Origin: an uncultured SAR116 cluster alpha proteobacterium
Lineage (GTDB): Bacteria; Pseudomonadota; Alphaproteobacteria; Puniceispirillales; GCA-002684695
DNA: 64,000 nt
Assembly (NCBI GenBank): GCA_902612965.1
Contig: CACMFN010000004.1
Coordinates: forward strand, 90,355-154,354
Direction of reading: 5' to 3'
Position 1 is the first letter of the stretch. Each line of letters opens with the position of its first letter. Of the stretch, positions 3,769 through 31,975 are shown piece after piece. The position numbers and the translations under genes were made by a program. The notes under the pieces were generated by a model. That model ran no database searches. It was given only the letters and a program-made list of their open reading frames with translations, and was not told where the DNA came from.

Positions 3769-5043
3769 ATGGATAAAGGTCAGTTAATAAAATTAAAGAG
3801 AAATAGTCTTGGATTGTCTCAAAAACAGATGGCCATGCTTTTGCAGTTAAATGAAACTGGTGAAAGAACTGTTCGCGGTTGGGAAAACAATGAACATGAA
3901 CCTTCTGATGAAGTCCTCATTAAACTAAAAAATCTTAAGATGGATTTTCCCTATTCCAGAAAAGAGTTTCATAATGGTCTGAAAATAATAGATCTTTTTG
4001 CAGGTATTGGTGGTATGCGACTAGCTTTTCAAAATCAGAATTGTCACTGTGTCTTTTCTTCTGAATTTGATAAATACTGTCAGAAAACTTATTACGCAAA
4101 TTTTGGTGAATACCCTGAAGGGGATATAAATGATTTTACGCCTGCAAAAGATAAAATCCCCGACCATGATATTTTATTGGCAGGATTTCCGTGTCAGGCA
4201 TTTTCACAAGCTGGACTTAAAAAGGGTTTTGAGGATACAAGAGGAACACTTTTTTATGAAATCCAGAGAATTCTTGTTGCTAAAAGGCCAAGAATGTTTC
4301 TGCTTGAAAATGTAAAACAATTAAAAGGAAACGACCGCGGAAAAACTCTCAAAATTATTATGAATATCCTAAGAGGTCTCGATCAGGATATAGATCCTTC
4401 TATTGAAATGTCCAAAGAAGCCAGAATGGCTCTTGGAAAAAAACTTAATTACTATTGTGACTTTAAAATACTGAGAAGTAGAGATTTTGGATTACCTCAG
4501 AACCGTGAAAGATTATATATAGTCGGATTTGATAAAAATTTTTATAAAGGAAAAATTAAAAAAACAAAGCTTCTTGAAGATGAAGACGAAATTTTTTCCA
4601 TGTTTAAATGGCCTACGCCTTTGAAAGGTATAAGAACTTCTGTTCAGCAAATTCTGGAAGATAACAAAAAAATTGATTCAAAATTTACTATTTCCCAAAA
4701 ATTACTTGATGGTCATATTAGAAGAAAAGAAGAGCACAGAGAAAAAGGAAATGGTTTTGGTTTTTCGGAATTTGATAATACTGATAGCTACACAAATACT
4801 ATTAGTGCCAGATATTACAAAGATGGTAGTGAAATATTAATCAAACAGAAAAACAAAAGACCAAGAAAATTAACACCACGTGAGTGTGCAAGACTTCAAG
4901 GTTATCCAGAAGATTTTATTATTGACCAGGTTTCTGACAATCAGATTTATAAGCAGTTTGGAAATTCGGTAAGTGTTCCAGTAGTAGAAGAGATTGCGAA
5001 AAGTATGCTTCACTTTGATCATACATATAATTTAATTTTCTAA
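3769..5043 (+). CDS. DNA (cytosine-5)-methyltransferase with N-terminal XRE-type HTH domain (SsoII/EcoRII-like architecture)
   Basis: HTH: LKRNSLGLSQKQMAMLLQLNETGERTVRGWE. C5-MTase motifs: I DLFAGIGG, IV GFPCQAFS, VI LLENVKQL, VIII QNRERLYIVGF, X QFGNSVSVP. Confidence 0.95.
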   Translation: MDKGQLIKLKRNSLGLSQKQMAMLLQLNETGERTVRGWENNEHEPSDEVLIKLKNLKMDFPYSRKEFHNGLKIIDLFAGIGGMRLAFQNQNCHCVFSSEFDKYCQKTYYANFGEYPEGDINDFTPAKDKIPDHDILLAGFPCQAFSQAGLKKGFEDTRGTLFYEIQRILVAKRPRMFLLENVKQLKGNDRGKTLKIIMNILRGLDQDIDPSIEMSKEARMALGKKLNYYCDFKILRSRDFGLPQNRERLYIVGFDKNFYKGKIKKTKLLEDEDEIFSMFKWPTPLKGIRTSVQQILEDNKKIDSKFTISQKLLDGHIRRKEEHREKGNGFGFSEFDNTDSYTNTISARYYKDGSEILIKQKNKRPRKLTPRECARLQGYPEDFIIDQVSDNQIYKQFGNSVSVPVVEEIAKSMLHFDHTYNLIF

Positions 5044-13535: not shown

Positions 13536-14732
13536 CTATTTAAAACCATTATTATCTGCAAAATCTATTTCCTCAAGACTTGGAAGTCCTTCTATTTCAA
13601 CTATTCTTTTACCTGAAATATTCTGTATTTCTTCGACAATATTAGCTGTGGATAAAATTACCTGCTCAATTAATTTGTCTTTAGCCTTATAAGACCTCTG
13701 CATAGCTATTAATTCTTTAAAGTTTCTTTCTCTCAACTCTGAAATTGTTCCAACCAATTGTCTTACAGAATTTCGAAATTGATTACTAATTAGGTATTTA
13801 TAAATAAGCTGAGATTTTTGTTTCCTGTTTATTTCAGAGGATAAAATTTTTGATTTTTCTATCAAACCATTTTTAAGTAACTTTGAAATTAGTTTAACTT
13901 CATGAAATCCACATACCCATATACCATCAACTATGTCAGCTTGATTTATTCCTTTAGGCATTGTTTCAGTTACAATAACACCAATGTCAGCATTTATATT
14001 TACTATATCTTGATGTAATTTTTTTATCCAGTTCATTGAAAATTCTTTTGTTCTTTTTATTTCAAAATAAATACTACCAACTTCCTGAAAATTTCTTGAT
14101 AAAATTGATAATAAACAATCTGCTCCCGGTCTTCCCTGTTTTACAGGTTTAATCTTATCAGTAGGGAAAAGATCTTTAAGTAACTTTTCAATATGAAATT
14201 CACCAGTTTCACCTTGGATCTGAATTGAGCCTTGCTGAATTTTTTTATTGATTCTTATTATATCATTTTTCAAAGTTGAAATCTGATAATCTCGCTCATC
14301 AATTTCAATCTGCATTGCAGTTTCTTTCTTGTTATTATTTTCTTTTACAGCTTTTAATACAGCACTTTTAATATCAATATTCCTGTCACGCTTGATTTGG
14401 TCAGCATCTTTTTCAATTTTTGATTTTTCCATCTCAAGATTTTTATTCCTTGTTATGAGTTCTTTTTTTTCTTCAATTTCTTTTTCATATTTTTCTGAAA
14501 TCATCTCAATATGTGTTTTTAATTTTTTTTCTGAAGTCATTTCGGCTTCTTTTTTAGCCTTTTTTTGCTCGTCTAAACGAACTTTCTCTATTTCATTTAG
14601 CTTTTTTTCTTCCCATTCAATCTCAATTTTTTTTAATATTTCTTTTTCTATGCTCTGCTTAACAACATCTTCAAGCTCAACTGGCATGGTGCAATGTGGA
14701 CAATAAAAATTTTGAATGTTTCGTTCTGTCAT
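13536..14732 (-). CDS. DUF2130-like protein (N-terminal zinc ribbon, long Lys/Glu coiled coil, C-terminal nuclease-like domain)
   Basis: The CPHCTMPVE start, an approximately 150-aa KE-rich coil and the overall length fit my memory of DUF2130. The family assignment has not been verified. Confidence 0.6.
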   Translation of the reverse strand: MTERNIQNFYCPHCTMPVELEDVVKQSIEKEILKKIEIEWEEKKLNEIEKVRLDEQKKAKKEAEMTSEKKLKTHIEMISEKYEKEIEEKKELITRNKNLEMEKSKIEKDADQIKRDRNIDIKSAVLKAVKENNNKKETAMQIEIDERDYQISTLKNDIIRINKKIQQGSIQIQGETGEFHIEKLLKDLFPTDKIKPVKQGRPGADCLLSILSRNFQEVGSIYFEIKRTKEFSMNWIKKLHQDIVNINADIGVIVTETMPKGINQADIVDGIWVCGFHEVKLISKLLKNGLIEKSKILSSEINRKQKSQLIYKYLISNQFRNSVRQLVGTISELRERNFKELIAMQRSYKAKDKLIEQVILSTANIVEEIQNISGKRIVEIEGLPSLEEIDFADNNGFK

Positions 14733-14740
14733 ATTATAAT

Positions 14741-15052
14741 TTAATGAATAGTTTTTTTAGGTTTTATATTATTAATTAATTTAATTTGATCTTTATCATC
14801 TTCTTGATTATTTGCATCCTCAGCCTTTGGATGATAGTACGCAAGTTGAGCGCCTAAGAAATTTGCCATTACAGTATTATGATCGTTACAAGTCTGATAG
14901 CTCATATCAAGACCAATATAAAAAAGGGTATATGCAATTAACCCTGGGTCATTTGTTTCTTTAAGTAATTTTTTAACAAGATCATTTATAGAGTCATAAG
15001 TTTCTGCAGCCTCTCTTTCCTCTATATCTGTCCTATTTAAAAGTTGCTTCAT
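14741..15052 (-). CDS. Hypothetical small protein; first gene of the minus-strand cassette
   Basis: The ORF track gives 14741..15109. I prefer the internal ATG at 15052 (MKQLLNRTDIEE...), which is preceded by GAGGTG. No motif recognised. Confidence 0.4.
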   Translation of the reverse strand: MKQLLNRTDIEEREAAETYDSINDLVKKLLKETNDPGLIAYTLFYIGLDMSYQTCNDHNTVMANFLGAQLAYYHPKAEDANNQEDDKDQIKLINNIKPKKTIH

Positions 15053-15191
15053 GTACACCTCAAATTCAATGATTCGGTGCATAGAAACATAAAATGAAAA
15101 AAAATACAATAAAAAAATTTGATTATTTTTTAATAATTTTTTAAACTACTGTTTTTATTATAAAAAAAATTAATAAATTTTAATTTTAATG

Positions 15192-15220
15192 TTGACTTTT
15201 TTAATTTACGGCATTAAATT
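15192..15220 (+). promoter_or_regulatory. Putative sigma70-type promoter of the regulator/ATPase operon
   Basis: TTGACT (15192-15197), 17 nt, then TAAATT (15215-15220), about 40 nt upstream of ATG 15263. It shares the ATGTTGAC context with the promoter at 686. Confidence 0.35.
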
Positions 15221-15262: not shown

Positions 15263-16750
15263 ATGACTGAGCAAACAAACATAAAAGAAACTTCGTTAGA
15301 TAAATCAAATAGGACTGTACCAAAAGTATTGTTTTCATGGATTGGTACTCAAGATTATCTAGCCTTAGATACAAAAAGCCATGGGCCTATATTCTCGTCA
15401 ATAAAATATCATGAATTTGAAGAAGTGATTTTACTACATGATAAAAATATAAATAATGAGAAATATGTTTCCTGGCTAAAAATGAATTCATCTGTAAAAG
15501 TGAGTTCATTTAAAGTTGATTTGAAAGACCCAACAGACTTTGAGGTAATTTACAAAAGCTGTAAAAAAGTTATCTCCTCATATAATGAAAATAATAATGA
15601 TTTGAGTGATTTTTATTTTTTAGTTAGTGCTGGAACATGGGCAATGGCCAGTGTCTGGATTATTATTAGTCAGAAAGATTTTCCTGCGACATTGCTAAAG
15701 GCGGATAGAATTTCTGATTCTATTATGGAAGTTAAAATTCCATTTGAAGTTTCTGTTCACTGGCATGAAGAGAAAGCAAAGGAGAATGACGAAGTTATTA
15801 CAGCAATGCGTGATAATTTTATAAAGTTTTCACAAAATGGTTTCCTCTGGAAAAGTGAATCCATGCTCAGGCTTTTAAAAACATCAATGAAAATAGCATC
15901 CAGAGAACTATCTGTTTTTATTGAAGGTGAGCCAGGGACAGAAAAAGAGGTATTAGCTAGAATTTTACATGAGGGAAGTGCAAGATCAAAAAATAGTTTT
16001 ATTAAATTAGATTGTAATTTATCACCAGATAAAGAAATAGAAGAGTTTTTGATAGGTTTAAATAAAAATGAAAGTCATAGTCATGGGACTGTTTACATAA
16101 ATGCAATTGAAAAATTGTCTCTAAGAAACCAAGGTATTTTATATTCATTAATAAAAGATTTTGAAAAAAATTCAGGAATAAAAAACCCCAGAATATTAAC
16201 GTCATCAAATATAACAGTTGGCCAATTATTCCATTTAGAAAGTTTTGATAATAGTCTATTACATTCAATTTCAATGATGATTTTAAAAATTCCTGCATTA
16301 AGACATAGAAAAATAGATTTAAATGAATATCTTGATCAAAGTATTTCTTTCGCATGTAGCGAAATTTTTGGAGAAAAATCAGGTATCAAAAAAACATTAT
16401 CACCTGCTGCTAAGAATTTTTTATTAAACTATAATTGGAAAGGCAACATGGATGAGTTGTACAGTGCAATGACAAGAATGGTCATTTTATCTGAAAGCAA
16501 TCTTGTAAATGAAAGCGATGCCCTAAGTTCGGTGTTCATGAACCATGATCAGGATAAAGACCAAAAAAAGATTTTAAACCGCTCACTCGAAAATGGAATA
16601 AATTTAAATTCACTTTTTTCGGAAGTGGCGCAGCATTATATTCCACGTGCACTTGATATATCAAATGGGAACAAAAAGAAAGCAGCAGATATTTTGGGAC
16701 TGCAAAGTCAACAAACTCTTGCAAACTGGATTGATAGGTATTTAAAATAA
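15263..16750 (+). CDS. RtcR-like regulator: N-terminal CARF-like domain, degenerate sigma54-activator AAA+ domain, C-terminal Fis-type HTH
   Basis: The N-terminus (VLFSWIGTQDY...EEVILLHD...DPTDFEVIY...FLVSAGTWAMASVW) parallels the RtcR N-domain (FGFVGTxLDY...LLHD...NPWDFEEVY...TTGTH). The AAA+ remnants are GEPGTEKEVLARILH, GTVYINAIEKLS and NWKGNMDEL. The HTH is GNKKKAADILGLQSQQTLANWIDRY. Confidence 0.75.
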   Translation: MTEQTNIKETSLDKSNRTVPKVLFSWIGTQDYLALDTKSHGPIFSSIKYHEFEEVILLHDKNINNEKYVSWLKMNSSVKVSSFKVDLKDPTDFEVIYKSCKKVISSYNENNNDLSDFYFLVSAGTWAMASVWIIISQKDFPATLLKADRISDSIMEVKIPFEVSVHWHEEKAKENDEVITAMRDNFIKFSQNGFLWKSESMLRLLKTSMKIASRELSVFIEGEPGTEKEVLARILHEGSARSKNSFIKLDCNLSPDKEIEEFLIGLNKNESHSHGTVYINAIEKLSLRNQGILYSLIKDFEKNSGIKNPRILTSSNITVGQLFHLESFDNSLLHSISMMILKIPALRHRKIDLNEYLDQSISFACSEIFGEKSGIKKTLSPAAKNFLLNYNWKGNMDELYSAMTRMVILSESNLVNESDALSSVFMNHDQDKDQKKILNRSLENGINLNSLFSEVAQHYIPRALDISNGNKKKAADILGLQSQQTLANWIDRYLK

Positions 16751-16784
16751 TAAATGCACTATTTCACTATTCATGGAATAAAGG

Positions 16785-18788
16785 ATGTCTAATACTCAAG
16801 AAAAAGTGAATATACTAAAAGCAATAAAAAGTTTCACATTGTCAAACTTCAGGTCTTGGGAAGGTGAAAATAAATTTGAATTTAAAAATTTAAACCTTTT
16901 GTTTGGTAAAAATAGCTCAGGAAAATCATCTATAATTGATGCACTTTCACTATTATCTCAAAGTTCATATTTAAAATTCCATGGTAATAGAAATATAAAA
17001 ACAAATTTGTCTTTGGGAAATCTTGTTATAAATGGTCATTTAGCTGAACTTGGTGATTTGGAAGATCTTGTATTTAAAAAAAGAACTGATCCTAGAGAAG
17101 AGAGATGGCATTTAAAGAATTTTGAGAATTCTTCAATAGCATATTATAAGGATTTATTTTTTGAATTTAAATTAGATCCAAAACTTATTTTCAATCAATT
17201 AAAAAAAGATCCTATGTTAAAATTAGTAAAGTATGTTTATATCAAATATACATTTAGCGATATAACTGGAAATCTTGTTAGAAGATCCTTTTTTATTGAA
17301 GATTACAACAAAAAAAGAACATTGCTTTTAGACCTATGGAGACCTAAGAAAACTCAAGTATGGGCTTTTAATATATCTAATGATTATTCTTTGTGGAAAC
17401 AAATTTGGGATATAGAGACATCTGAAGGAATAGACTTTGTTCGATTTTTAAATAGGGAGGGAGATAAATATGCAGCTCTAGAAATGGACAATTTAAAGGA
17501 AAACAATCAAAAGCAAAACTTGCTTAGTATTAGAAGTCTAGAAGCTGAAACTGAAAGACAAGAGCTTTTATTAGAAAAAGAGAAATTACAATTAGAACTT
17601 TCAATTTTGAGACAGAGAGATCAAAAACTGAGTTTTCAATTTAATAAAACTGATGAAACTTTAAAGGAGATGCAATTAACAGGTAAGTCTAGTATTAAAT
17701 TCGCTAAAGAAAAAGAAATACTGCTAAATGAGATTTATAAAAACAAGAATGAAGAGGACAGTCTTTTAAAGCAAATAGATGATTTATTACGTGACATAAA
17801 AGATAGAGAAAATATTCTTGAATTGACCAATTATAGCACCAAGAATGAACCCGAAAAAGTCTTGTTTTTTGAACAAATTGAAAAATTTTCTTCCTATAAT
17901 TCCAACCATACAAAAAATAAAAATTTGTTAAGTGCCAATATCGAGAGTTTTGGTGAAACATGGGTACATGATTCAATTTCTAAAATGAGGCATTTTATAA
18001 GAAACAACTACAAAGATGATGCTTATTATCAACAAAGATTAGATCCATTCGATATGGCAGGAGAATGTGAAGAAGTACTTCTTAATTTTTTGCAATCAAT
18101 TGTTCGAATTGGACCGCATAGAAAAAGACCACAAAGAACAATGACTGCATCAAGGAGACATAATGTTGATAAGTTTAATATAGGTGTGGATGGTTCGGAT
18201 TTATACCCTTTGCTAAGTGATAAAAAAATATTATCAGGTTTAAATTCTTCTTTAGAAAAGGTTGAGATACCTTATACAATATCAACTAAGAGGCATAGAG
18301 GAGGGCGATGGTCTCTTATACTAAAAAATAAAACAGATGTCAGAGTAGATATAAATGATGTTGGTTATGGTATTAGCCAGGTGCTCCCTTTAATTTTACA
18401 ATCTTTTCAAAAAAATAAGTTAATTCTTATTGAGCAGCCAGAGTTACATTTACATCCAAAACTCCAAGCAAATCTTGCAGATATATTTATTAGTTCATCT
18501 AAAGATAATGGGAATTCATTTATCATTGAAACTCACTCTGAACATATTGTACTGAGACTTCAGAGGAGGTGTAGAGAACAAGTTAAAAGTGAAAATGTAG
18601 GCTTACATTCCAAGGATAGTTTAGCAGACATGATTAACATAAATGTTATTACCCAAGATAATCAGAGGCTAAATTCAAAAAATAAAAAAATGGAAATTTC
18701 CAAAAAAGGTGAATTTATGAATGTATGGCCAGAAGGTTTTTTTGAGGAAAGATTTATTGAGCTAGGCATTATTGACGAGGGTGACTAA
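16785..18788 (+). CDS. ABC/AAA_21-type ATPase with inserted coiled coil and DUF3696-like C-terminus
   Basis: Walker A FGKNSSGKSSIIDAL (aa 40-54). A coiled coil spans about aa 235-345 (LLSIRSLEAETERQELLLEKEKLQLELSILRQRDQK...). Further motifs are GYGISQVLPLIL, Walker B/D-loop LILIEQPELHLHPKLQ and H-loop IIETHSEHIVLRLQRR. The tail motif is WPEGFFEE. Confidence 0.8.
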   Translation: MSNTQEKVNILKAIKSFTLSNFRSWEGENKFEFKNLNLLFGKNSSGKSSIIDALSLLSQSSYLKFHGNRNIKTNLSLGNLVINGHLAELGDLEDLVFKKRTDPREERWHLKNFENSSIAYYKDLFFEFKLDPKLIFNQLKKDPMLKLVKYVYIKYTFSDITGNLVRRSFFIEDYNKKRTLLLDLWRPKKTQVWAFNISNDYSLWKQIWDIETSEGIDFVRFLNREGDKYAALEMDNLKENNQKQNLLSIRSLEAETERQELLLEKEKLQLELSILRQRDQKLSFQFNKTDETLKEMQLTGKSSIKFAKEKEILLNEIYKNKNEEDSLLKQIDDLLRDIKDRENILELTNYSTKNEPEKVLFFEQIEKFSSYNSNHTKNKNLLSANIESFGETWVHDSISKMRHFIRNNYKDDAYYQQRLDPFDMAGECEEVLLNFLQSIVRIGPHRKRPQRTMTASRRHNVDKFNIGVDGSDLYPLLSDKKILSGLNSSLEKVEIPYTISTKRHRGGRWSLILKNKTDVRVDINDVGYGISQVLPLILQSFQKNKLILIEQPELHLHPKLQANLADIFISSSKDNGNSFIIETHSEHIVLRLQRRCREQVKSENVGLHSKDSLADMININVITQDNQRLNSKNKKMEISKKGEFMNVWPEGFFEERFIELGIIDEGD

Positions 18789-18792
18789 ATAA

Positions 18793-19746
18793 ATGATCTA
18801 TAAAGATTATATCCTTGAAAACGAAGTATTATTTGATGAAAATTTTTTAGTAAAGCAATTTGGTTTATTGAATGGATATTTGATTAACGAATTGCCAAAC
18901 CAACAATTTTCCAAACTAGAGATTAGAAGATTTATGAACGAGAATAATTTCAATTCTCACCAAAGATATATGATACTAAATAAAATTAAAAAATTAATAG
19001 ATTTAAAAGCCTTTACAAGACATAAACAGCTTTCTTATATTTCAGAATTAGATTGGTCTTCTCAAGCAATTAAACAAGTAAAAGATGGTAATTCTTTCGG
19101 TTTTATTACAACTACTAATAAACATCATGGAGACTCAATTAAGTATAAAAAATTCCAAGAAAATATAATTGCTACTCCATGGTGTAGAATAAACATTGAA
19201 CCTGAAAAATATCTTAAAATCCTTGAACCTGCATTATCTCAAGCTGTTAAGATAAAATTTATTGATAGATTTATTCTCAATTTGGAAGGACAGTATGATG
19301 ATTTTCGTCATCAATGTTTGGAATTTATTGGGATGGTTTGTGCCTACTATTATACTAGAAATAATTTTGATGTAGAGCTAGATATATTTTCAAATTATAA
19401 GAATAACGTTTTTGGAAAAATGAAAACAATTGATGTTTCGAAATTAAAAAATTATATAAAGTCTGATAAAAGTTATGACATTTTGTCAAAATTTAATGTA
19501 AACTTTTACCTTCTTAAGGAAGAAGATCCTCTTATTGAAGATTTGCATGACAGGTTTTTTTGGACACCTGATACTCTTATAAATGTTGGTATAGGTTTTA
19601 CCCAAGACAGACGCCGTAGTACTAGTATTACACTAATGTCAAATAAACATCTCCATGAGGAAATTGATGATTCATATTCAGGGCTAGATAATGACAGATT
19701 TAAGGTTATGGATAGTTTCTCGATTAATGATTTAAAAAATATTTAA
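18793..19746 (+). CDS. Uncharacterised protein with C-terminal MIT_C-like (phospholipase-D-fold) domain (tentative)
   Basis: VKIKFIDRFILNLEGQYDDFRHQCLEFIGMV...VNFYLLKEEDPLIEDLHDRFFWTPDTLINVGIGF resembles the MITD1 C-terminal pattern (IRIQDPYI...[20 protein letters not shown]). The start lies 4 nt after the ATPase stop. This resemblance was judged by eye. Confidence 0.4.
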   Translation: MIYKDYILENEVLFDENFLVKQFGLLNGYLINELPNQQFSKLEIRRFMNENNFNSHQRYMILNKIKKLIDLKAFTRHKQLSYISELDWSSQAIKQVKDGNSFGFITTTNKHHGDSIKYKKFQENIIATPWCRINIEPEKYLKILEPALSQAVKIKFIDRFILNLEGQYDDFRHQCLEFIGMVCAYYYTRNNFDVELDIFSNYKNNVFGKMKTIDVSKLKNYIKSDKSYDILSKFNVNFYLLKEEDPLIEDLHDRFFWTPDTLINVGIGFTQDRRRSTSITLMSNKHLHEEIDDSYSGLDNDRFKVMDSFSINDLKNI

Positions 19747-19812: not shown

Positions 19813-20691
19813 ATGATTAATTTTAGAAAACATTTTCAGTCATCCACTTTGACTGATAGTTTTAAACTAGGAGCATTAACACTGTACCCAATTAATTTTG
19901 AAAATAGATCAATGCCATTTCAATTTTCAACTTTTGATGATCTTCATGACAGGGATTTAGTTGAGGCAAGAGAAATAGGTACAGAAGGTATTGTAGGAAG
20001 AATTATAATTGAAAATAAAAGTGACGATTATTTAATTATATTTGATGGTGAAGCAATAGTTGGTGCAAAACAAAACCGTATAGCTGAGCAAACAGTAATT
20101 ATTTTGCCTAAATCAATACTTGAAATACCAGTAAATTGTGTTGAAAGAGGTAGATGGCAATATCGTGATAGAAGAAGATTTTCTAAAAGTAACTTCTCTG
20201 CAAGTCCAAAAATGAGAGTATCAAAAGCTGAAATGCTTAAAGCGCAAAGATATGAAAATGTTCAATCTGAAATGTGGAATGAAATTGATATGCTTTCTGA
20301 GAAGGTATCTTATTCTTCCAACACAAGTGATCTTGGAGATGTGTTGTATAATAGGGAAAAATATAAATTTGATTACGATAAAAGTTTAATAGAAAATTCC
20401 TCTTGCAAAGGTTTCCTGGTATTTGGAACAGGGAAACCATTTATTGAAGTTTTTTTAAATAATGAAATCTGTAAAAAACAAACTTTAAAATCACTTGATA
20501 GCTGGATGGCTGATATAGAATATGGTTCTGAAGTGCCATCAAACCCAAATGTATTTCTCGAACATTTTCTAATTTCGGAATGGAAAAATGACAGAAATAT
20601 AGGAATCGAAAATTCATTTAGCCCTTCAATTTTAAATGGAAGAGCTACGTTTCTGCAAAATGAATTTATACATACTTATTATTATTTTTAG
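19813..20691 (+). CDS. ARPP-1/DUF6569-like protein (tentative)
   Basis: LGALTLYPI...LVEAREIGTEGIVGRIIIENKSDDYLIIFDGEAIVGAKQNRIAEQTVIILPKSILEIPVNCVERGRWQY matches the remembered signature (LTVFPL...LLLDGEELVGAKQNR...IPVSCVEQGRW). AAGGAG lies upstream of the ATG. Confidence 0.55.
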   Translation: MINFRKHFQSSTLTDSFKLGALTLYPINFENRSMPFQFSTFDDLHDRDLVEAREIGTEGIVGRIIIENKSDDYLIIFDGEAIVGAKQNRIAEQTVIILPKSILEIPVNCVERGRWQYRDRRRFSKSNFSASPKMRVSKAEMLKAQRYENVQSEMWNEIDMLSEKVSYSSNTSDLGDVLYNREKYKFDYDKSLIENSSCKGFLVFGTGKPFIEVFLNNEICKKQTLKSLDSWMADIEYGSEVPSNPNVFLEHFLISEWKNDRNIGIENSFSPSILNGRATFLQNEFIHTYYYF

Positions 20692-20700
20692 GAGTAAATA

Positions 20701-21216
20701 ATGTGTGATGGTTGCACACAAATTTTTATAAAGTTTAAAAAAGTTATCAGAGGAGCTGCTCTTACTCATGCAAACAGTTTTGTAGCTGCTGATGATCTCA
20801 TTGGGATTATCAATTTAAAATTCTTTGCATGGAAAAAAAACCAAAAAGGACAAATCAATTTAAAAAATGCATTTTTCTATACAATTGCAAAAAATGCTGC
20901 AATTGACCAAATCGAAGATGAGGACAAAAGACTATATAATGAGCATGAAGATCTTTTAAATACTGTTTATTTTTCAGAAAAATTAAATGATGTAGAGACA
21001 AAATATCTTGTTGAACAAATTCTTATGAGTGTGGAGAACCACGAAAGAGATGCTCTTATTTCTGTTATTAATAATGAAACAGTAAAAGAGTTCTGTGAAA
21101 GAAATAAAATTGAAAAACAAAATACAGGTATTAAGAAAAGAAGAAGAGCTATTGAGGCAGCAGCTAATCGTATAAATTTGTTAAATAAAGAAGAAAGAAT
21201 TAAGAATGACATATGA
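20701..21216 (+). CDS. Sigma-70 family (ECF-like) sigma factor homologue
   Basis: Region 2-like AADDLIGIINLKFFAWKK...LKNAFFYTIAKNAAIDQIEDEDKR. Region 4-like ERDALISVINNETVKEFCERNKIEKQNTGIKKRRRAIEAAANRI. Confidence 0.6.
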   Translation: MCDGCTQIFIKFKKVIRGAALTHANSFVAADDLIGIINLKFFAWKKNQKGQINLKNAFFYTIAKNAAIDQIEDEDKRLYNEHEDLLNTVYFSEKLNDVETKYLVEQILMSVENHERDALISVINNETVKEFCERNKIEKQNTGIKKRRRAIEAAANRINLLNKEERIKNDI

Positions 21217-22297
21217 AATTCTATCCGAAAATGATTTAAAAAAATATTTTTATTCAGAGAAATTCAGTTCAGTAATTGATGAACTGGATATAAAGAAAAA
21301 ACAAAAACAAGAAACTATATGTAAATGTTTTTTTTATGGATTATCAATTAATGGAATAAAGTTTGATAAAATTTTTTATGATGAGATAGAAAATTCTTTT
21401 GATGAAAATATACCTGCATACATTATTTCAAATTATCAAACATTTAAAAAATTTGAAAACAACCAAAATGCAAATTTATATTTTAATGAATTTATAAAAA
21501 GTAAAACATTTGAATTTCTTGATAATGAACTCTTCAATATTGCTGAAACAAGATTTGACTGGTTTAACAATAATTTCGCAATTGGAAAATTAGATGCAAA
21601 CAAAAAAAATATGCAAGATTTTCAAAGTGATTTTGGAAATGTTTATTCTATTGAAAGACGTGAACCAGTTTTGTTTGAAGTTTCTGAAAAAGAAAACTTA
21701 TACAGAAATCAAATTTTAGAAATTATTTCCAAGATTGACAGTTTTCGGAATTTTCAAACCAAAATAGGTTACACAAAAGATGAATACAAAAATTCTTTAA
21801 TGATGATAAGTTCTGAATGGAATTATTTGCTAGAACAAATGAACCATACATGTCAGTTATTACTAAATGAGAATAATGAGAAATATGAAAAATTAAATAA
21901 AATAATTTTATTTTACAGAAATGAATTTCAGTATGTAAACAAACAGATTGAAACCATAATTAATAATCTTGATGACATAAATAAGAAATTTGATTCATTT
22001 CGAGAACAAAGTCAGTATGCAACTGAAGAGATGATGGAATTATTTGAAGAACGGAAAAATAATATTTATGACTTTTATAAAGCAGGCAGATTTGTAAACC
22101 GAAAAAGTGAAAGAAAAAATAAGCATTATACATTTAGTAATAATATAAACCTGGAAAAAATCTTTCAGAAAGAAGATAATAATATCGAGATAACACAGGA
22201 ATTTTTTGAAAATGTTTTCCTTATAAATAGAGTTTTTTATCACAAAAAAAACATTGATCTTGTAAAACAATCTTTTGAAGGAATACTCAATGATTAG
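21206..22297 (+). CDS. Hypothetical protein (363 aa, Asn/Lys/Glu-rich, helical)
   Basis: Overlaps the sigma-like gene's stop by 11 nt, which suggests translational coupling. No motif recognised. Confidence 0.55.
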   Translation: MTYEILSENDLKKYFYSEKFSSVIDELDIKKKQKQETICKCFFYGLSINGIKFDKIFYDEIENSFDENIPAYIISNYQTFKKFENNQNANLYFNEFIKSKTFEFLDNELFNIAETRFDWFNNNFAIGKLDANKKNMQDFQSDFGNVYSIERREPVLFEVSEKENLYRNQILEIISKIDSFRNFQTKIGYTKDEYKNSLMMISSEWNYLLEQMNHTCQLLLNENNEKYEKLNKIILFYRNEFQYVNKQIETIINNLDDINKKFDSFREQSQYATEEMMELFEERKNNIYDFYKAGRFVNRKSERKNKHYTFSNNINLEKIFQKEDNNIEITQEFFENVFLINRVFYHKKNIDLVKQSFEGILND

Positions 22298-23490: not shown

Positions 23491-25782
23491 CTATACCAAC
23501 CTTTTCTCTGATATGTAATACCCAGTATTATTTCTTCTGATTAAATAATCTGAATTGTTTGCAATACCTCTCATTCTAGCATTGAACCTTTTTTGCGGTG
23601 GAATAAAATGTTTCGGATAATTATCCTCGACCCATGAACAACAATCACTATACGCATTTTTAAAACTGTAATTGTAATTCTTTTTTATATTTTCTTCAAA
23701 ATCTCCCCTGTCAAACCATTCAAGTATTACATCAGCCTCTTTAAACCATTCTTCAGTCGCATCAGAAACTACAGAGGGTATATCATATCCACCATTTTGA
23801 ATCACCTGCTCTAAACCCCTAACAGACAATGCAAGAAAAACATTACTTTCTTCATTTAGGATCTTATCAGCAATCATCGGTATCTGTTCATTGCTTGGGA
23901 TACTTCTTTTGAAGGGTATAACATTCATCCTTCTCTCTATGCCAGCATCTACACCATCAATGAAATTGGGGAGTTCATTAGCAGCAAACAGATGAATAGC
24001 TGTCGGGTTAAAGTTAAAAACATGTTTATAAATAATTTTAGCTGTAACTGTTTCACCTGTTATTACAGCTTTCATCTTATCTGATGTGATGGCCTGCGAT
24101 CCTGATAATTCGTCTGTTATATTTATGCTTTTCCCTGAGAGATCAGCAAGATATTGTTCTTTATTCAGGTTACCAGGCGGAATTGATGTAGAAGCTGTCT
24201 TAGGTAGGAAAAGTTTCAGAAGTTTTAAAAATTGAGACTTTCCATTCATGGCTGTAGGTCCATATAAAACAAAAGCTTTCGGGGAAGATAATCGGGTTGA
24301 ATAACTAGAACAGGCAACACCCGATATTTGAAACAAAAGTTTGATAAGCCTTTCCTTGAAAAGTTCATCTTTAAAACAGCCATCCAGAAATATTTTCAAA
24401 AAGCCATCTATACATAGGTTCTGATCAGGTTGCCATGTAGATTGAATTGTATGTCTTTGCCGATGAAGATGGTGATGTTCAAGCAAAGAGATAGAAGGCT
24501 TGTCTGTAACTTTAATGAAACCAGAAAGACAATTAATTCCAACTAAGCTCTCACTGAAGAAACCGGGTCTGGCACATATTGAAGATAGCTCATTTATAAC
24601 TCCGTCTATAAAATTTTTATTTGATATAATAAATTTCTTTTTTTGAAATTGAAGACCATCCAGATCCTGGACCCATTTTCTGCATATATGATCTTCACAT
24701 TTTTCCCAATGTGTTTTGTTATATGTCCAGAAAAAACCTTCATCAAACACAAGCGGAGGTTTATTGAATTCTTTTCGGGCTTTTATATATTTGGCAATTT
24801 CGGTATGAGATCCTCTCGTTATTATAAAATCAGATTGACCGTTCCATCCAGCATCTCTTGCTTTTATGAAAATCGTTTCAATTGATATTCTATCAGGTTT
24901 GAAAGTATTCCATTTCGAAAGAACATCCTCTTTCCCCTTAAAATTATAAGGAACGCTTCCATCAGATCGTTTTTCTGACCATGACATGAAAATTTCAAAA
25001 GCTTTATCACTTTTTGTCGATTTCAAGGCCATCCCTACATAAATCCATTGATTATAGTCTTGAGGATCAAGAAATTTTAATGGATCAGCAATATTTTCAA
25101 GAATTTTATCATTCGTGTCATTACATGTTGGCTTATAGGTTTTATTTTCAAATATATTTTTTCGGGAAACAGGCTTTCCAAAAAATGAGAAGATCTTTTT
25201 TTCACTAACTTGTCTAAGGTAATCGACCTGTTTCATATTTATGGGAGGCAGATCTTCAATATTCATATCCATAATATTATCATCTGCCCATATATAATTT
25301 TTTCCTGTCTTGGGATGGATACCCGAGATTACAGCCTGATTGCCTTTTGAGAGAAACTCGACTTGGTTTTTTTCATCACCGTCCATATAGGTTTCTGTTG
25401 ATGACTTGCTAAATGTTTTACCCTCTACTCTGAAAAACAATGCTGCTTTTGGGCTTTGCCCAATTCTCATAGGTGCATGCCCAAAATTATCTTTTATAAA
25501 TTTTATTACTTCAAAACTGAGATCTTTATTCATGATATCAATGTCAATTACACAAACTCTGCCAAGAAGAATTCCAATGCCATGCTGTCTGTGATCTTTG
25601 ATAAGTTTTTGGTATTGATCTTGATCTATTTTATCGAATTTAGTCCATCCTTTAACAGCTGGTCTTTTCTGCTTCTCAAGAATAGGTATGGGATAAAAGC
25701 CGTTATCCAGAAGTCTTTCTGCATATTCATGAAAATATTGGGGATTAGTCATTGCTCTTCTCCATATATTGAAACCATTCAT
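23491..25782 (-). CDS. Bifunctional primase-polymerase / D5-P4-type replicative helicase
   Basis: N-terminal PrimPol signature LLDNGFYPIPILEKQKRPAVKGW...HGIGILLGRVCVIDIDI. Central Walker A LYGPTAMNGKSQFLKLL. Overall architecture of phage/plasmid primases of the P4 family. Confidence 0.88.
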   Translation of the reverse strand: MNGFNIWRRAMTNPQYFHEYAERLLDNGFYPIPILEKQKRPAVKGWTKFDKIDQDQYQKLIKDHRQHGIGILLGRVCVIDIDIMNKDLSFEVIKFIKDNFGHAPMRIGQSPKAALFFRVEGKTFSKSSTETYMDGDEKNQVEFLSKGNQAVISGIHPKTGKNYIWADDNIMDMNIEDLPPINMKQVDYLRQVSEKKIFSFFGKPVSRKNIFENKTYKPTCNDTNDKILENIADPLKFLDPQDYNQWIYVGMALKSTKSDKAFEIFMSWSEKRSDGSVPYNFKGKEDVLSKWNTFKPDRISIETIFIKARDAGWNGQSDFIITRGSHTEIAKYIKARKEFNKPPLVFDEGFFWTYNKTHWEKCEDHICRKWVQDLDGLQFQKKKFIISNKNFIDGVINELSSICARPGFFSESLVGINCLSGFIKVTDKPSISLLEHHHLHRQRHTIQSTWQPDQNLCIDGFLKIFLDGCFKDELFKERLIKLLFQISGVACSSYSTRLSSPKAFVLYGPTAMNGKSQFLKLLKLFLPKTASTSIPPGNLNKEQYLADLSGKSINITDELSGSQAITSDKMKAVITGETVTAKIIYKHVFNFNPTAIHLFAANELPNFIDGVDAGIERRMNVIPFKRSIPSNEQIPMIADKILNEESNVFLALSVRGLEQVIQNGGYDIPSVVSDATEEWFKEADVILEWFDRGDFEENIKKNYNYSFKNAYSDCCSWVEDNYPKHFIPPQKRFNARMRGIANNSDYLIRRNNTGYYISEKRLV

Positions 25783-25936
25783 TGATTTTTTTAATTGAGA
25801 AGAGGGGAGTTCTGCCTGATGCTTTAATAGGTTTTGGGAAGTTTCTATTTTTAATCCATCTATTTAGTGTGTCCTTATGGATATTAAAGCGTGAACAGAT
25901 TTTGTCTCTTGATATAATTTCATAAAGTTTGTGCAT
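25745..25936 (-). CDS. AlpA-family HTH regulator / excisionase-like protein
   Basis: RFNIHKDTLNRWIKNRNFPKPIKASGRTPLFSIKKINEW is the AlpA / prophage CP4-57 regulatory pattern. Confidence 0.8.
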   Translation of the reverse strand: MHKLYEIISRDKICSRFNIHKDTLNRWIKNRNFPKPIKASGRTPLFSIKKINEWFQYMEKSND

Positions 25937-26038
25937 GCAAATTCTCCTTGCAATAAAATTGATAATTTTGGATTTGCATCGCTTTTCATGAGAAGTGGCA
26001 GCCTATGAACACCACTATGCGTATCTTTTGGTACTTTA

Positions 26039-26207
26039 ATTTCAGTACTTCAGGCTGATCGTTCACCTTTATTTCAGTATTTTCTCTTAATACTGATACT
26101 TGATTATATCATGGTATATTAAGGTATGACAGGCCCAAATTTAATTTTTTCCGGTCACATCTCCGTCACAACGGTAGCTCATTTCTTGACTTTTTAAGGT
26201 ATGCAGG
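26039..26207. repeat. Two sets of short direct repeats in the alpA-tRNA spacer
   Basis: ATTTCAGTACTT (26039-26050) and ATTTCAGTATTT (26071-26082). TTAAGGTATGACAGG (26119-26133) and TTAAGGTATGCAGG (26194-26207). GTCACA occurs twice within 26147-26170. Confidence 0.5.
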
Positions 26208-26274
26208 AGAGAATCTGATAAATATTAACAGTGAGGTGTGATTAGCCTATAGCCTTGAATTTACCTGTGAAAAG

Positions 26275-26350
26275 TGGTGCCCAGGGGCGGATTTGAACCA
26301 CCGACACGAGGATTTTCAGTCCACTGCTCTACCGACTGAGCTACCTGGGC
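26275..26350 (-). tRNA. tRNA-Phe (anticodon GAA), CCA encoded
   Basis: The reverse complement GCCCAGGTAGCTCAGTCGGTAGAGCAGTGGACTGAAAATCCTCGTGTCGGTGGTTCAAATCCGCCCCTGGGCACCA folds as a cloverleaf. It is close to E. coli tRNA-Phe. There is one U-U mismatch in the anticodon stem. Confidence 0.95.
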
Positions 26351-31704: not shown

Positions 31705-31975
31705 GCTGCACTAGCTCAGGGGTAGAGCACTCCCTTGGTAAAAATTTGCCTCTCTTAGGTGAAAACTTAAGATGAAAAGCTCTCAAATTCGGGGAAAGCT
31801 AAGGATTAATTCTAAGCCAATCCCGAGCCAAGCCAATGAGGAAGGTGTAGAGACTGAACGGGAGCAGCCTAAGGAACTTTTCTAAGGCTAAGAGACAGTC
31901 CACTTCTCTTAAATTTCGAAAGAAAAATGAGGAGGAAGGGAGAGGTCACTGGTTCAATTCCAGTGTGCAGCACCA
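31705..31975 (+). tRNA. tRNA-Thr (anticodon GGU) interrupted by a group I intron; exons 31705-31739 and 31936-31975
   Basis: The joined exons read GCTGCACTAGCTCAGGGGTAGAGCACTCCCTTGGT|AAGGGAGAGGTCACTGGTTCAATTCCAGTGTGCAGCACCA. This is a 75-nt perfect cloverleaf, very close to E. coli tRNA-Thr(GGU). Confidence 0.9.
31740..31935 (+). ncRNA. Group I self-splicing intron (Azoarcus-like, IC3-type), 196 nt, no ORF
   Basis: The 5' exon ends in U and the intron ends in G. The IGS candidate GCC (31748-31750) can pair with exon GGU. The P2 hairpin is TCTTAGG-TGAAAA-CTTAAGA (31753-31772). Core blocks TCAAATTCGGGGAAAGCTAAGG (31783-31804), CCCGAGCCAAGCC (31822-31834), GAAGGTGTAGAGACTGAACGG (31841-31862) and CCTAAGG parallel the Azoarcus tRNA-Ile intron. 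A GAAA tetraloop hairpin lies at 31914-31925. Confidence 0.85.

Follow-up and report, generated by a model that had tools for sequence, protein, structure and literature searches.

We analysed a stretch of 64,000 nucleotides (nt) from an uncultured alphaproteobacterium of the SAR116 cluster (contig CACMFN010000004.1, positions 90,355 to 154,354), hereafter called the window. Three neighbouring genes in it, g1, g2 and g3, encode an RtcR-like regulator, an NsnB-type ABC ATPase and an effector candidate, respectively (Table 1). As described in the original prediction, a first reading of the letters, the three open reading frames (ORFs) are co-directional on the + strand and tightly spaced, with gaps of 34 nt between g1 and g2 and 4 nt between g2 and g3. 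The motifs quoted in that reading were all found in the translations (GKNSSGKS with K47, IEQPELHLHP, ETHSEH, WPEGFFEE and LHDRFFWTPDTLINVGIGF). The divergent upstream cassette, which it had called Mza-like, scored as MzaB, MzaC, MzaD and MzaE. ORF calls were mechanical throughout.

The product of g1 matched the PADLOC model RtcR_PspF2--CARF_AAA_HTH over residues 21-493 (E = 2.5e-88), as well as the Pfam models Sigma54_activ_2 (1.2e-15) and AAA_lid_14 (2.9e-9). Residues 21-136 were matched by the Csx1/Csm6 CARF models of PADLOC (1.7e-8), CARF1 models matched g1 as well (about 1e-7), and the isolated N-terminus scored 22.2 bits (E = 1.1e-4) with Pfam RtcR, just under the cut-off of 23.1. Judged by its N-terminal CARF domain, as found by CARF profiles, g1 is a member of the CARF superfamily. 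Pfam HTH_8 was found at residues 457-480 (E = 0.003). The RtcR/CARF-type N-domain and the Fis-type helix-turn-helix (HTH) of the original prediction thus stand, but the central sigma-54-type AAA+ domain and its degeneracy had been overlooked. Against NtrC1, g1 aligns with a deletion in place of the GAFTGA loop and with GEPGTEKE as its Walker A; the acidic pair of Walker B is gone (INA versus LDE), and the arginine-finger segment is DNSLLHSI in place of REDLYYRL. Therefore, g1 is not a sigma-54-dependent bacterial enhancer-binding protein (bEBP): GAFTGA, Walker B, the arginine finger and the -24/-12 target promoter are all lost. A true RtcR of an rtcBA locus was also rejected, because g1 reached only 99.5 bits with the NCBIfam equivalog RNA_repair_RtcR (cut-off 650) and because no rtcA or rtcB gene was found, either near the locus in the window or next to any of 10 related regulators.

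The product of g2 is similar to Pfam AAA_15 (1.1e-25) and AAA_21 (1.3e-18). Its best PADLOC models were PDC-M55A (5.3e-44), NsnB (1.3e-41) and the HEC-03 ATPase (5.4e-33), whereas the AriA, GajA, PtuA and Old models scored far worse. Membership of Septu, Gabija, PARIS or Lamassu was rejected, since those PADLOC matches were weak, confined to the N-terminal P-loop (1e-9 to 1e-23) and much poorer than the three best. In an alignment of 11 related ATPases (640-770 amino acids, aa), both the N- and the C-terminal ABC halves are conserved, including Walker A, GYG..Q, IEQPELHLHP, ETHSEH and WP.GFF.ER, and G41, N43, S44, G46, K47 and S48 of g2 are invariant. The middle segment is hypervariable in length and sequence. 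In g2 this segment comprises about 110 residues without proline or glycine, of which 40-60% are charged or glutamine, with a heptad a/d hydrophobic excess of up to 0.6. On this heuristic, the insert is compatible with a short helical hairpin, much shorter than an SMC arm. The original prediction of an AAA_15/DUF3696-class ABC ATPase with a helical insert was thus upheld, although its "SMC-like coiled coil" overstates a segment of this size. The isolated C-terminal tail matched Pfam DUF3696 with 19.8 bits (E = 9.4e-4; cut-off 22), and PF12476 is present in the g2 relatives P0016-P0025. Like NsnB, g2 has a GxG signature in place of SGG and an E-rich Walker B. By its sequence, g2 is of the NsnB type: it has the ABC ATPase core of AAA_15 and, with a score just under the threshold, the DUF3696 helix at its C-terminus.

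The third gene, g3, belongs to a family of proteins encoded next to such ATPases. The protein encoded directly 3' of related ATPases on metagenomic contigs is a distant g3 homologue (17-20% identity), and K155, D158, E177, H252, R254 and R273 are invariant between g3 and these homologues. An iterated profile over the ORFs of 85 loci collected about 69 family proteins of about 300-350 aa. Fifty-five of them were called directly downstream of the top-scoring ATPase of their locus, and several of the remaining members lie after a second ATPase or at spots where the greedy ORF call differed. In a larger sample, a family member was found directly 3' of the ATPase gene in 90 of 151 cases. A leave-clade-out hidden Markov model (HMM) of the family matched g3 over residues 6-315 with E = 1.4e-17. 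Because a profile without the window clade still scores g3, its family membership is free of circular training. Only D158, H252 and R254 are conserved in at least 90% of 61 family members. The family profile matched the MIT_C domain of human MITD1 (PDB 4A5Z, sequence 4A5Z_A) over MITD1 residues 18-149 (E = 9.1e-7), with the DPY, HDR and GRG(L/F)D motifs aligned, and the profile excluding the window clade matched 4A5Z as well (E = 2.6e-9). One family member matched the C-terminus of BrxL (1.6e-5). At the level of the family profile, the C-terminal half of g3 is therefore MIT_C/PLD-like with a D...HxR centre, and it is at this level only that the corresponding part of the original prediction was borne out.

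A word-indexed search of 5.8 billion proteins with g3 as the query recovered only g3 itself, a HMMER scan of 1.84 billion representatives returned only three weak and probably spurious matches, and an exact-sequence look-up among contigs gave no match. A homologue search with the 61-sequence family alignment yielded 9 proteins only, a search of PDB sequences with the alignment of the 5-sequence g3 clade gave nothing useful, and residues 1-136 had no match by sequence. In two loci that otherwise are nearly identical to the L003 element (L004, 8703-9711; L005, 6831-7838), the g3 homologue was called as an N-terminally shortened ORF of 260 aa, with a gap of about 225 nt before its start. The homologues in L003 and L006 have 336 aa and a 4-nt overlap with the ATPase gene. 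The short forms are probably natural variants with a disrupted effector N-domain.

Table 1 Features of the g1-g2-g3 locus and its divergent neighbours, in window coordinates.
Feature	Position	Strand	Basis
g1, RtcR-like CARF / degenerate sigma-54-type AAA+ / Fis-type HTH protein, 495 aa	15263..16750	+	PADLOC, Pfam
g1 CARF / RtcR-type N-terminal domain, residues ~21-147	15323..15703	+	PADLOC, Pfam
g1 degenerate AAA+ domain and lid, residues ~197-433	15851..16561	+	alignment to NtrC1 (PDB 4L4U/3M0E); 28 g1 relatives
g1 C-terminal Fis-type HTH, residues ~457-494, NGNKKKAADILGLQSQQTLANWI	16631..16744	+	Pfam
g1 candidate sigma-70-type promoter, TTGACT-17-TAAATT, weak	15192..15220	+	consensus scan, 9/12 matches
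g2, NsnB-type ABC ATPase, 667 aa	16785..18788	+	Pfam, PADLOC, alignment
g2 Walker A GKNSSGKS (K47)	16905..16928	+	sequence; invariance in alignment
g2 variable helical, coiled-coil-like insert, residues ~239-350	17499..17834	+	heuristic
g2 C-terminal DUF3696-like tail, includes WPEGFFEERF	18633..18764	+	Pfam on isolated tail
g3, effector candidate, 317 aa, family directly 3' of NsnB-type ATPases	18793..19746	+	family HMM
g3 MIT_C / PB-PLD1-like PLD-fold half; D158 at 19264-19266, H252-D253-R254 at 19546-19554	19201..19690	+	family profile
122-aa protein, conserved divergent neighbour in the window clade	14741..15109	-	homology
DUF2130 protein, PD-(D/E)xK superfamily, conserved divergent neighbour	13536..14732	-	Pfam DUF2130, 3.2e-50

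The order bEBP-like regulator, AAA_15 ATPase and protein of about 320-336 aa recurs on unrelated metagenomic contigs at about 17-43% protein identity, which argues that the trio is not a chance juxtaposition. The synteny on which the original prediction depended was indeed found in other genomes: the trio is present on loci L001-L006 and L088, and also in many genome and metagenome loci across phyla. When genomic and metagenomic loci were collected by the similarity of their ATPases, 38 of them contained a g1-like gene, and such a gene lies upstream on the same strand of 37 of 151 related ATPase genes. This association is clustered on a neighbour-joining tree of the ATPases (10 Fitch steps; mean 24 and minimum 16 in 1000 shuffles). 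On the far side of the regulators, the genes are heterogeneous (Fic, phosphotransferase system, ParB, transposase, creatininase) and never rtcA or rtcB. Therefore, the regulator belongs with the ATPase operon. The other genes behind which the sampled pairs sit encode RAMP proteins, HsdM/HsdS, AlwI, UvrD, S1 and SbcC-like proteins, and almost never DUF262. The genes 3' of g3 also vary between loci (L001-L003, L026), so that the ARPP-1, sigma factor and 363-aa genes that follow g3 in the window are a separate unit; because L001-L003 and L026 do not share them downstream, they were rejected as members of the module.

In a 28-sequence alignment of g1 relatives, the distantly related regulators carry the canonical motifs GESGTGKE, GAFTGA or GAFSGA, LDE and REDLYYRL; they come from Desulfobulbia, Syntrophus, Spirochaetaceae, Thiocystis, Pirellulaceae, Vicinamibacterales and others. 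Their loci contain a near-perfect sigma-54 promoter between the regulator and the ATPase, typically TGGCACG-N4-TTGCT. When at least 9 of 11 positions of TGGCAC-N5-TTGC were required in front of the ATPase, the promoter was present in 25 of the 27 loci in which an ATPase follows a canonical regulator, many of which are closely related (an estimated dozen or so independent lineages). It was found in 4 of 142 control ATPases without a regulator in the locus, and in none of the nine loci with a GAFTGA-less regulator (window, L001-L006, L088 and L026). No such site was found near g1 or g2, and the window as a whole has no excess of them. The GAFTGA-less loci lack the promoter that the canonical loci possess; therefore, loss of the contact loop and loss of the promoter are correlated. 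As far as their sequences tell, the regulators of the distant relatives are genuine sigma-54 activators of the ATPase operon, and, with a -24/-12 promoter before the ATPase, they control transcription. This differs from the original prediction, in which a CARF sensor acted on the proteins, and the window itself has neither GAFTGA nor the promoter.

The nine GAFTGA-less loci represent six lineages (window, L001, L002, the L003 group, L088 and L026), whose sources are marine metagenomes and the single-cell genome of a marine alphaproteobacterium. No regulator of this window clade has GAFTGA, and the loss of Walker B and of the arginine finger was recorded for the window copy. The regulators of the window, L001, L003 and L088 share a variant Walker A, G(D/E)xGTEK(E/S). 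Simple decay is argued against, since the GAFTGA-less regulators are full length in all six lineages, the variant Walker A is common to four, and in the window copy one can still recognise both the CARF domain and the HTH. The window form is a distinctive derived state without sigma-54 dependence.

A palindrome containing GCAAATTA (GCAAATTAATTTGC) was found twice in the divergent intergenic region of L002 (5091-5105 and 5186-5200), once just past the regulator stop codon of the same locus (around 6835) and once in L003 (around 4975). It is a possible operator of the GAFTGA-less regulator, and only a lead. No comparable element was found in the AT-rich spacer of the window.

Other arrangements of the ATPase-effector pair were observed among the relatives. 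In five loci from metagenome-assembled genomes (MAGs) of Vicinamibacterales (L055, 5257-13157; also L051, L056, L060 and L064), a single RtcR-like regulator with a single sigma-54 promoter precedes two successive pairs, a 860-aa ATPase with a 337-aa partner and then a 574-aa ATPase with a 335-aa partner (all sizes approximate). The arrangement looks like a tandem duplication of the core beneath a single switch. In a Spirulina MAG (L008, 5009-10337) and an Anaerolineae MAG (L011, 4623-9516), the gene immediately before the pair encodes a large protein of the RAMP superfamily (Pfam RAMPs, 7.8e-21 in L008 and 4.1e-9 in L011, where it is fused to a cold-shock domain), which hints at another front end, related to CRISPR type III. 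Related ATPases were also found on 56 IMG/VR contigs (L166-L221), with a g3-family gene directly downstream in 6 and an RtcR-like regulator in none. Therefore, the unregulated pair is also carried by (pro)phage-like elements.

In the original prediction, the combination of the three genes was matched to no named defence system. However, a precedent for the ATPase-effector pair exists in Menshen (NsnA-NsnB-NsnC; Millman 2022), whose effector NsnC contains a MIT_C-like PB-PLD1 domain, with D/E after beta-2 and HDR before beta-5, that is also found in BrxL (Li et al. 2025, PMC12065111). The window locus resembles Menshen in its three co-directional genes ordered sensor/regulator, ATPase and effector, in the NsnB match, AAA_15 core and DUF3696-like tail of g2, and in the MIT_C-like domain with its D...HDR centre that the g3 family carries, tightly coupled 3' of the ATPase. 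It differs in several respects. The first gene encodes a CARF-AAA+-HTH protein and not the ParB-DUF262/ParBDB protein NsnA, and the other neighbours are DUF2130, a small ORF and ARPP-1. A DGxQR-type gene was found upstream of 1 of 151 related ATPases, and DUF262 in none of the 10 upstream genes that were sampled. The helical insert of g2 sets it apart from NsnB, which is said to have no coiled-coil insertion, and g3 itself matches neither the PADLOC NsnC model nor the MIT_C model. Canonical Menshen was therefore rejected, for want of NsnA. HEC-03 and the candidate system PDC-M55 (PADLOC-DB v2) are similar pairs; HEC-03, an ABC ATPase with a VapC-like PIN protein, was shown experimentally to confer defence, with both genes needed (Payne et al. 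2024, bioRxiv 10.1101/2024.01.29.577857). Like them, g2-g3 is a compact pair of ABC ATPase and partner of a kind found inside or beside other defence systems, and relatives of the pair are embedded in type I restriction-modification (R-M) loci. On the other hand, neither g3 nor its 61-member family matched the HEC-03 or PDC-M55 partner models, g1 matched no PDC-M55 component, and neither of those systems has a regulator gene.

The regulator-led layout is not without precedent either, because RtcR homologues are already known to head the CoCoNuT defence superoperons (Bell et al. 2024, PMC11090510). Here, too, an RtcR-type CARF-AAA+-HTH protein is encoded by the first gene of a defence operon whose genes share one direction, and the canonical relatives, with GAFTGA and a sigma-54 promoter, follow the logic proposed there. 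Unlike in CoCoNuTs and rtcBA loci, the controlled genes encode an NsnB-type ATPase and a PLD-fold protein and not McrBC-like or rtcBA products. In comparison with MITD1 (PDB 4A5Z/2YMB), g3 adds an unrelated N-domain of about 135 residues and is coupled to an ATPase. In its design, g1 also recalls two other groups of regulators. TyrR, HupR and Rhodobacter NtrC are sigma-54-independent bEBP-like regulators, and Csa3 is a CARF-HTH regulator. A GAFTGA-less AAA+ domain with an HTH is found in the former and a CARF domain with an HTH in the latter, and with both designs a ligand controls transcription from ordinary promoters; g1 differs from both by combining the two designs in one protein, with an AAA+ domain that also lacks Walker B.

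Taken together, we regard g1-g2-g3, with somewhat more confidence than doubt, as a probable anti-phage module built on a Menshen-type ATPase-effector core, without NsnA and with an RtcR-like regulator in front. The sequences establish the domain identities, the family membership, the synteny and the joint loss of GAFTGA and promoter, from which defence, a g2-g3 complex, the activity of g3, the ligand and the present action of g1 are deduced. The ATPase-effector logic and the type of regulator are known; of their combination we found no description. No paper in the library searched connects RtcR-like regulators with either NsnB-type ATPases or effectors of the MIT_C type, although the CARF census that defined RtcR_PspF2 (Makarova 2020) was outside the coverage and might mention this neighbourhood.

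By analogy with Menshen, for which an AlphaFold 3 model shows the DUF3696 tails of an NsnB tetramer clamping the NsnC N-domain and in which ATP binding or hydrolysis is proposed to govern effector activity or release (PMC12065111), the DUF3696-like tail of g2 is expected to hold the two-domain g3. An infection cue would lead to ATP binding or hydrolysis by g2 and to the release or activation of g3. The active g3 would then attack nucleic acid or, less likely, membrane phospholipid, and the infection would be aborted. Such a clamp model for the core pair is supported by the related HEC-03, which defends with both genes needed. In the ancestral form of g1, which persists in many phyla, the CARF domain would have sensed a signal and driven sigma-54 activation of the ATPase-effector operon from the -24/-12 promoter. 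RtcR regulates RNA repair in response to damaged tRNA, and by analogy the canonical inducing signal may be damaged tRNA or RNA that bears cyclic-phosphate ends, or bound partner proteins (PMC7790460, PMC9650030). The g1 protein of the window is most likely a sigma-54-independent, CARF-controlled HTH regulator. Through its CARF and HTH domains, it would regulate g1-g2-g3, and possibly also the divergent small-ORF and DUF2130 genes, in response to a ligand.

Several observations weigh against this interpretation. Searched alone, g3 had no match in Pfam, PADLOC, NCBIfam or PDB sequences, and its individual relatives fared little better: 5 of 61 matched Pfam MIT_C and 3 of 61 matched PADLOC NsnC, all below threshold (the gathering threshold in the case of MIT_C). 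AlphaFold2 models of g3 had mean confidence scores (pLDDT) of 32.9 from g3 alone and 34.8 from the 9-sequence alignment, and are unusable; neither a PLD fold nor a PIN-like N-domain, such as the inactive one (inPIN) of NsnC, was visible. The MIT_C domain of MITD1 is a membrane-binding module in cytokinesis without known catalysis, so that "nuclease" is for g3 a hypothesis only. ATPase-effector pairs without a regulator make up about three quarters of the relatives. These relatives were sampled from a seed of two ATPase peptide motifs and are thus biased, and several of the loci are near-duplicates. The degenerate AAA+ domain could mean that g1 is decaying. The number of sigma-70-type sites in the upstream region of g1 was not above that in shuffles, and no operator or promoter was definable in the AT-rich intergenic DNA of the window. 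Finally, the whole assignment is computational, and g1-g2-g3 are known from sequence alone.

The present role of g1 may be read in other ways. It might no longer be a transcription factor and instead replace NsnA as a protein-level sensor subunit, with the CARF domain binding a nucleotide or RNA and the ATPase-dead AAA+ ring scaffolding and gating g2-g3. GAFTGA is lost, Walker A is altered wherever it is readable, and in the window copy Walker B and the arginine finger are gone too, yet the ORF is full length at about 30% identity; the variant Walker A shared by four lineages would suggest a constrained new role. The gene also occupies the position of NsnA in Menshen, and the short g1-g2 gaps in the window and in L026 (4 nt in the latter) point to co-expression. 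However, g1 has kept its Fis-type HTH, its ancestors were clearly transcriptional activators, and the g1-g2 gap of 117-199 nt in L001-L003 is as expected with a regulated promoter still there. In Menshen, moreover, even NsnA is not predicted to bind NsnB or NsnC (PMC12065111). A sensor subunit is improbable in our judgement. We give an equally small chance to the view that g2 and g3 defend on their own, as a two-gene system like HEC-03/PDC-M55, and that g1 is in this lineage a functionless, decaying relic of a former sigma-54 regulator, kept by linkage. Most related pairs do have no regulator and sit behind unrelated HsdM/HsdS, AlwI, UvrD, RAMP or S1 genes, HEC-03 works with two genes, and several catalytic motifs of g1 are gone together with the promoter it served. 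Yet g1 is an intact ORF with intact homologues in six deeply diverged lineages, four of which have the same variant Walker A, and its CARF and HTH domains remain recognisable; such persistence is not expected of relic genes.

A function outside immunity was also considered, namely a stress or RNA-damage unit analogous to rtcBA, in which the RtcR-like sensor would control an ATPase and a phosphodiesterase acting on damaged host RNA or DNA. Among characterised proteins, RtcR, a regulator of RNA repair, is indeed the one most closely related to g1 (PMC7790460, PMC9650030). However, rtcA and rtcB lie beside none of the examined regulators, g2 is best matched by models of defence systems, and the pairs are embedded in type I R-M loci, beside restriction enzymes and on mobile islands. 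The partner proteins are polymorphic and fast-evolving, as is typical of conflict systems (PMC12065111), and we consider this explanation very improbable. A more far-reaching proposal, which we offer with considerable reserve, is that in the window lineage the GAFTGA-less CARF-pseudo-AAA+-HTH protein turned from a sigma-54 activator into a subunit that senses the signal for a Menshen-like ATPase/PLD effector, or into its regulator, and that the wider combination of RtcR-like bEBP, sigma-54 promoter, NsnB-like ATPase and PLD effector is an undescribed type of inducible defence present in many phyla. If this were true, it would represent CARF-controlled defence without a CRISPR or CBASS signal generator, reading an RNA or nucleotide cue derived from infection and perhaps coordinating the divergent DUF2130 nuclease.

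On the other side of g1, two divergent genes are conserved in the window clade. The 122-aa protein is homologous to the divergent small ORF of L002-L006 and L088 and to that of L001 (the latter with BLASTP 2e-7, HMM 2.4e-7), and the DUF2130 protein is 30% identical to its counterpart in L002 (E = 4e-49), with further counterparts in L003-6, L088 and L026. DUF2130 is classed as PD-(D/E)XK (PMC3424549). The divergent pair of DUF2130 and a gene for about 100-120 aa was found in most GAFTGA-less lineages (L002, 3529-4998; L003, 3422-4925; L088; L026, 1113-2300) and in none of the canonical sigma-54 loci. Possibly, these two genes are an accessory linked to the module, or g1 regulates them. In the window, the DUF2130 gene occupies the expected place of MzaA at the head of the MzaB-E genes, and its product matched no PADLOC model.

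Further out, a C-5 cytosine DNA methylase (1.7e-92) fused to an N-terminal HTH_3 domain (3e-7) is encoded upstream of the Mza-like cassette (3769-5043, +); no partner endonuclease was identified. Directly 3' of g3 (19813-22297, +) are genes for a protein with an ARPP-1 domain (PF20208, 6.6e-48), for a small sigma-70 factor of ECF-like type (Sigma70_r2, 3e-6) and for a 363-aa protein that could not be annotated, with gaps of 66, 9 and -11 nt, which look like a separate three-gene cassette. A primase-helicase with Prim-Pol, PriCT_2 and DUF5906 (D5-like) domains adjoins a tRNA-Phe gene (26275-26350), the two together spanning 23491-26350 (-). Because the Mza genes, the C5 methylase and the primase adjoin a tRNA gene, this layout suggests an integrated mobile element that carries the entire defence island. 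Within the window, the 3' end of tRNA-Phe was not found again as an att-type repeat. A match to the Rfam model of the group I catalytic intron, with 67.9 bits against a gathering score of 50, lies at 31714-31924 (+) between EPSP synthase and agmatinase-like genes, outside any tRNA detected by ARAGORN.

The NsnB-NsnC-type core thus appears as a movable two-gene cassette that can be plugged beneath different front ends. About a quarter of the nearest relatives sampled sit beneath an RtcR-like, sigma-54-dependent switch, suggesting that a toxic ATPase-effector pair is transcribed only upon a signal of RNA damage or infection. This would extend the CoCoNuT idea to a second, unrelated class of effectors. 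Since current models of Pfam and PADLOC miss the effector family, tools of the DefenseFinder and PADLOC type under-call such loci. For mutational analysis, the targets are K47 of g2, D158, H252 and R254 of g3, and in g1 the HTH and the CARF domain. The window clade represents a natural experiment, in which the joint loss of the sigma-54 contact loop and of the promoter shows the adaptation of a regulated defence module, probably to hosts or elements that are unable to rely on sigma-54.

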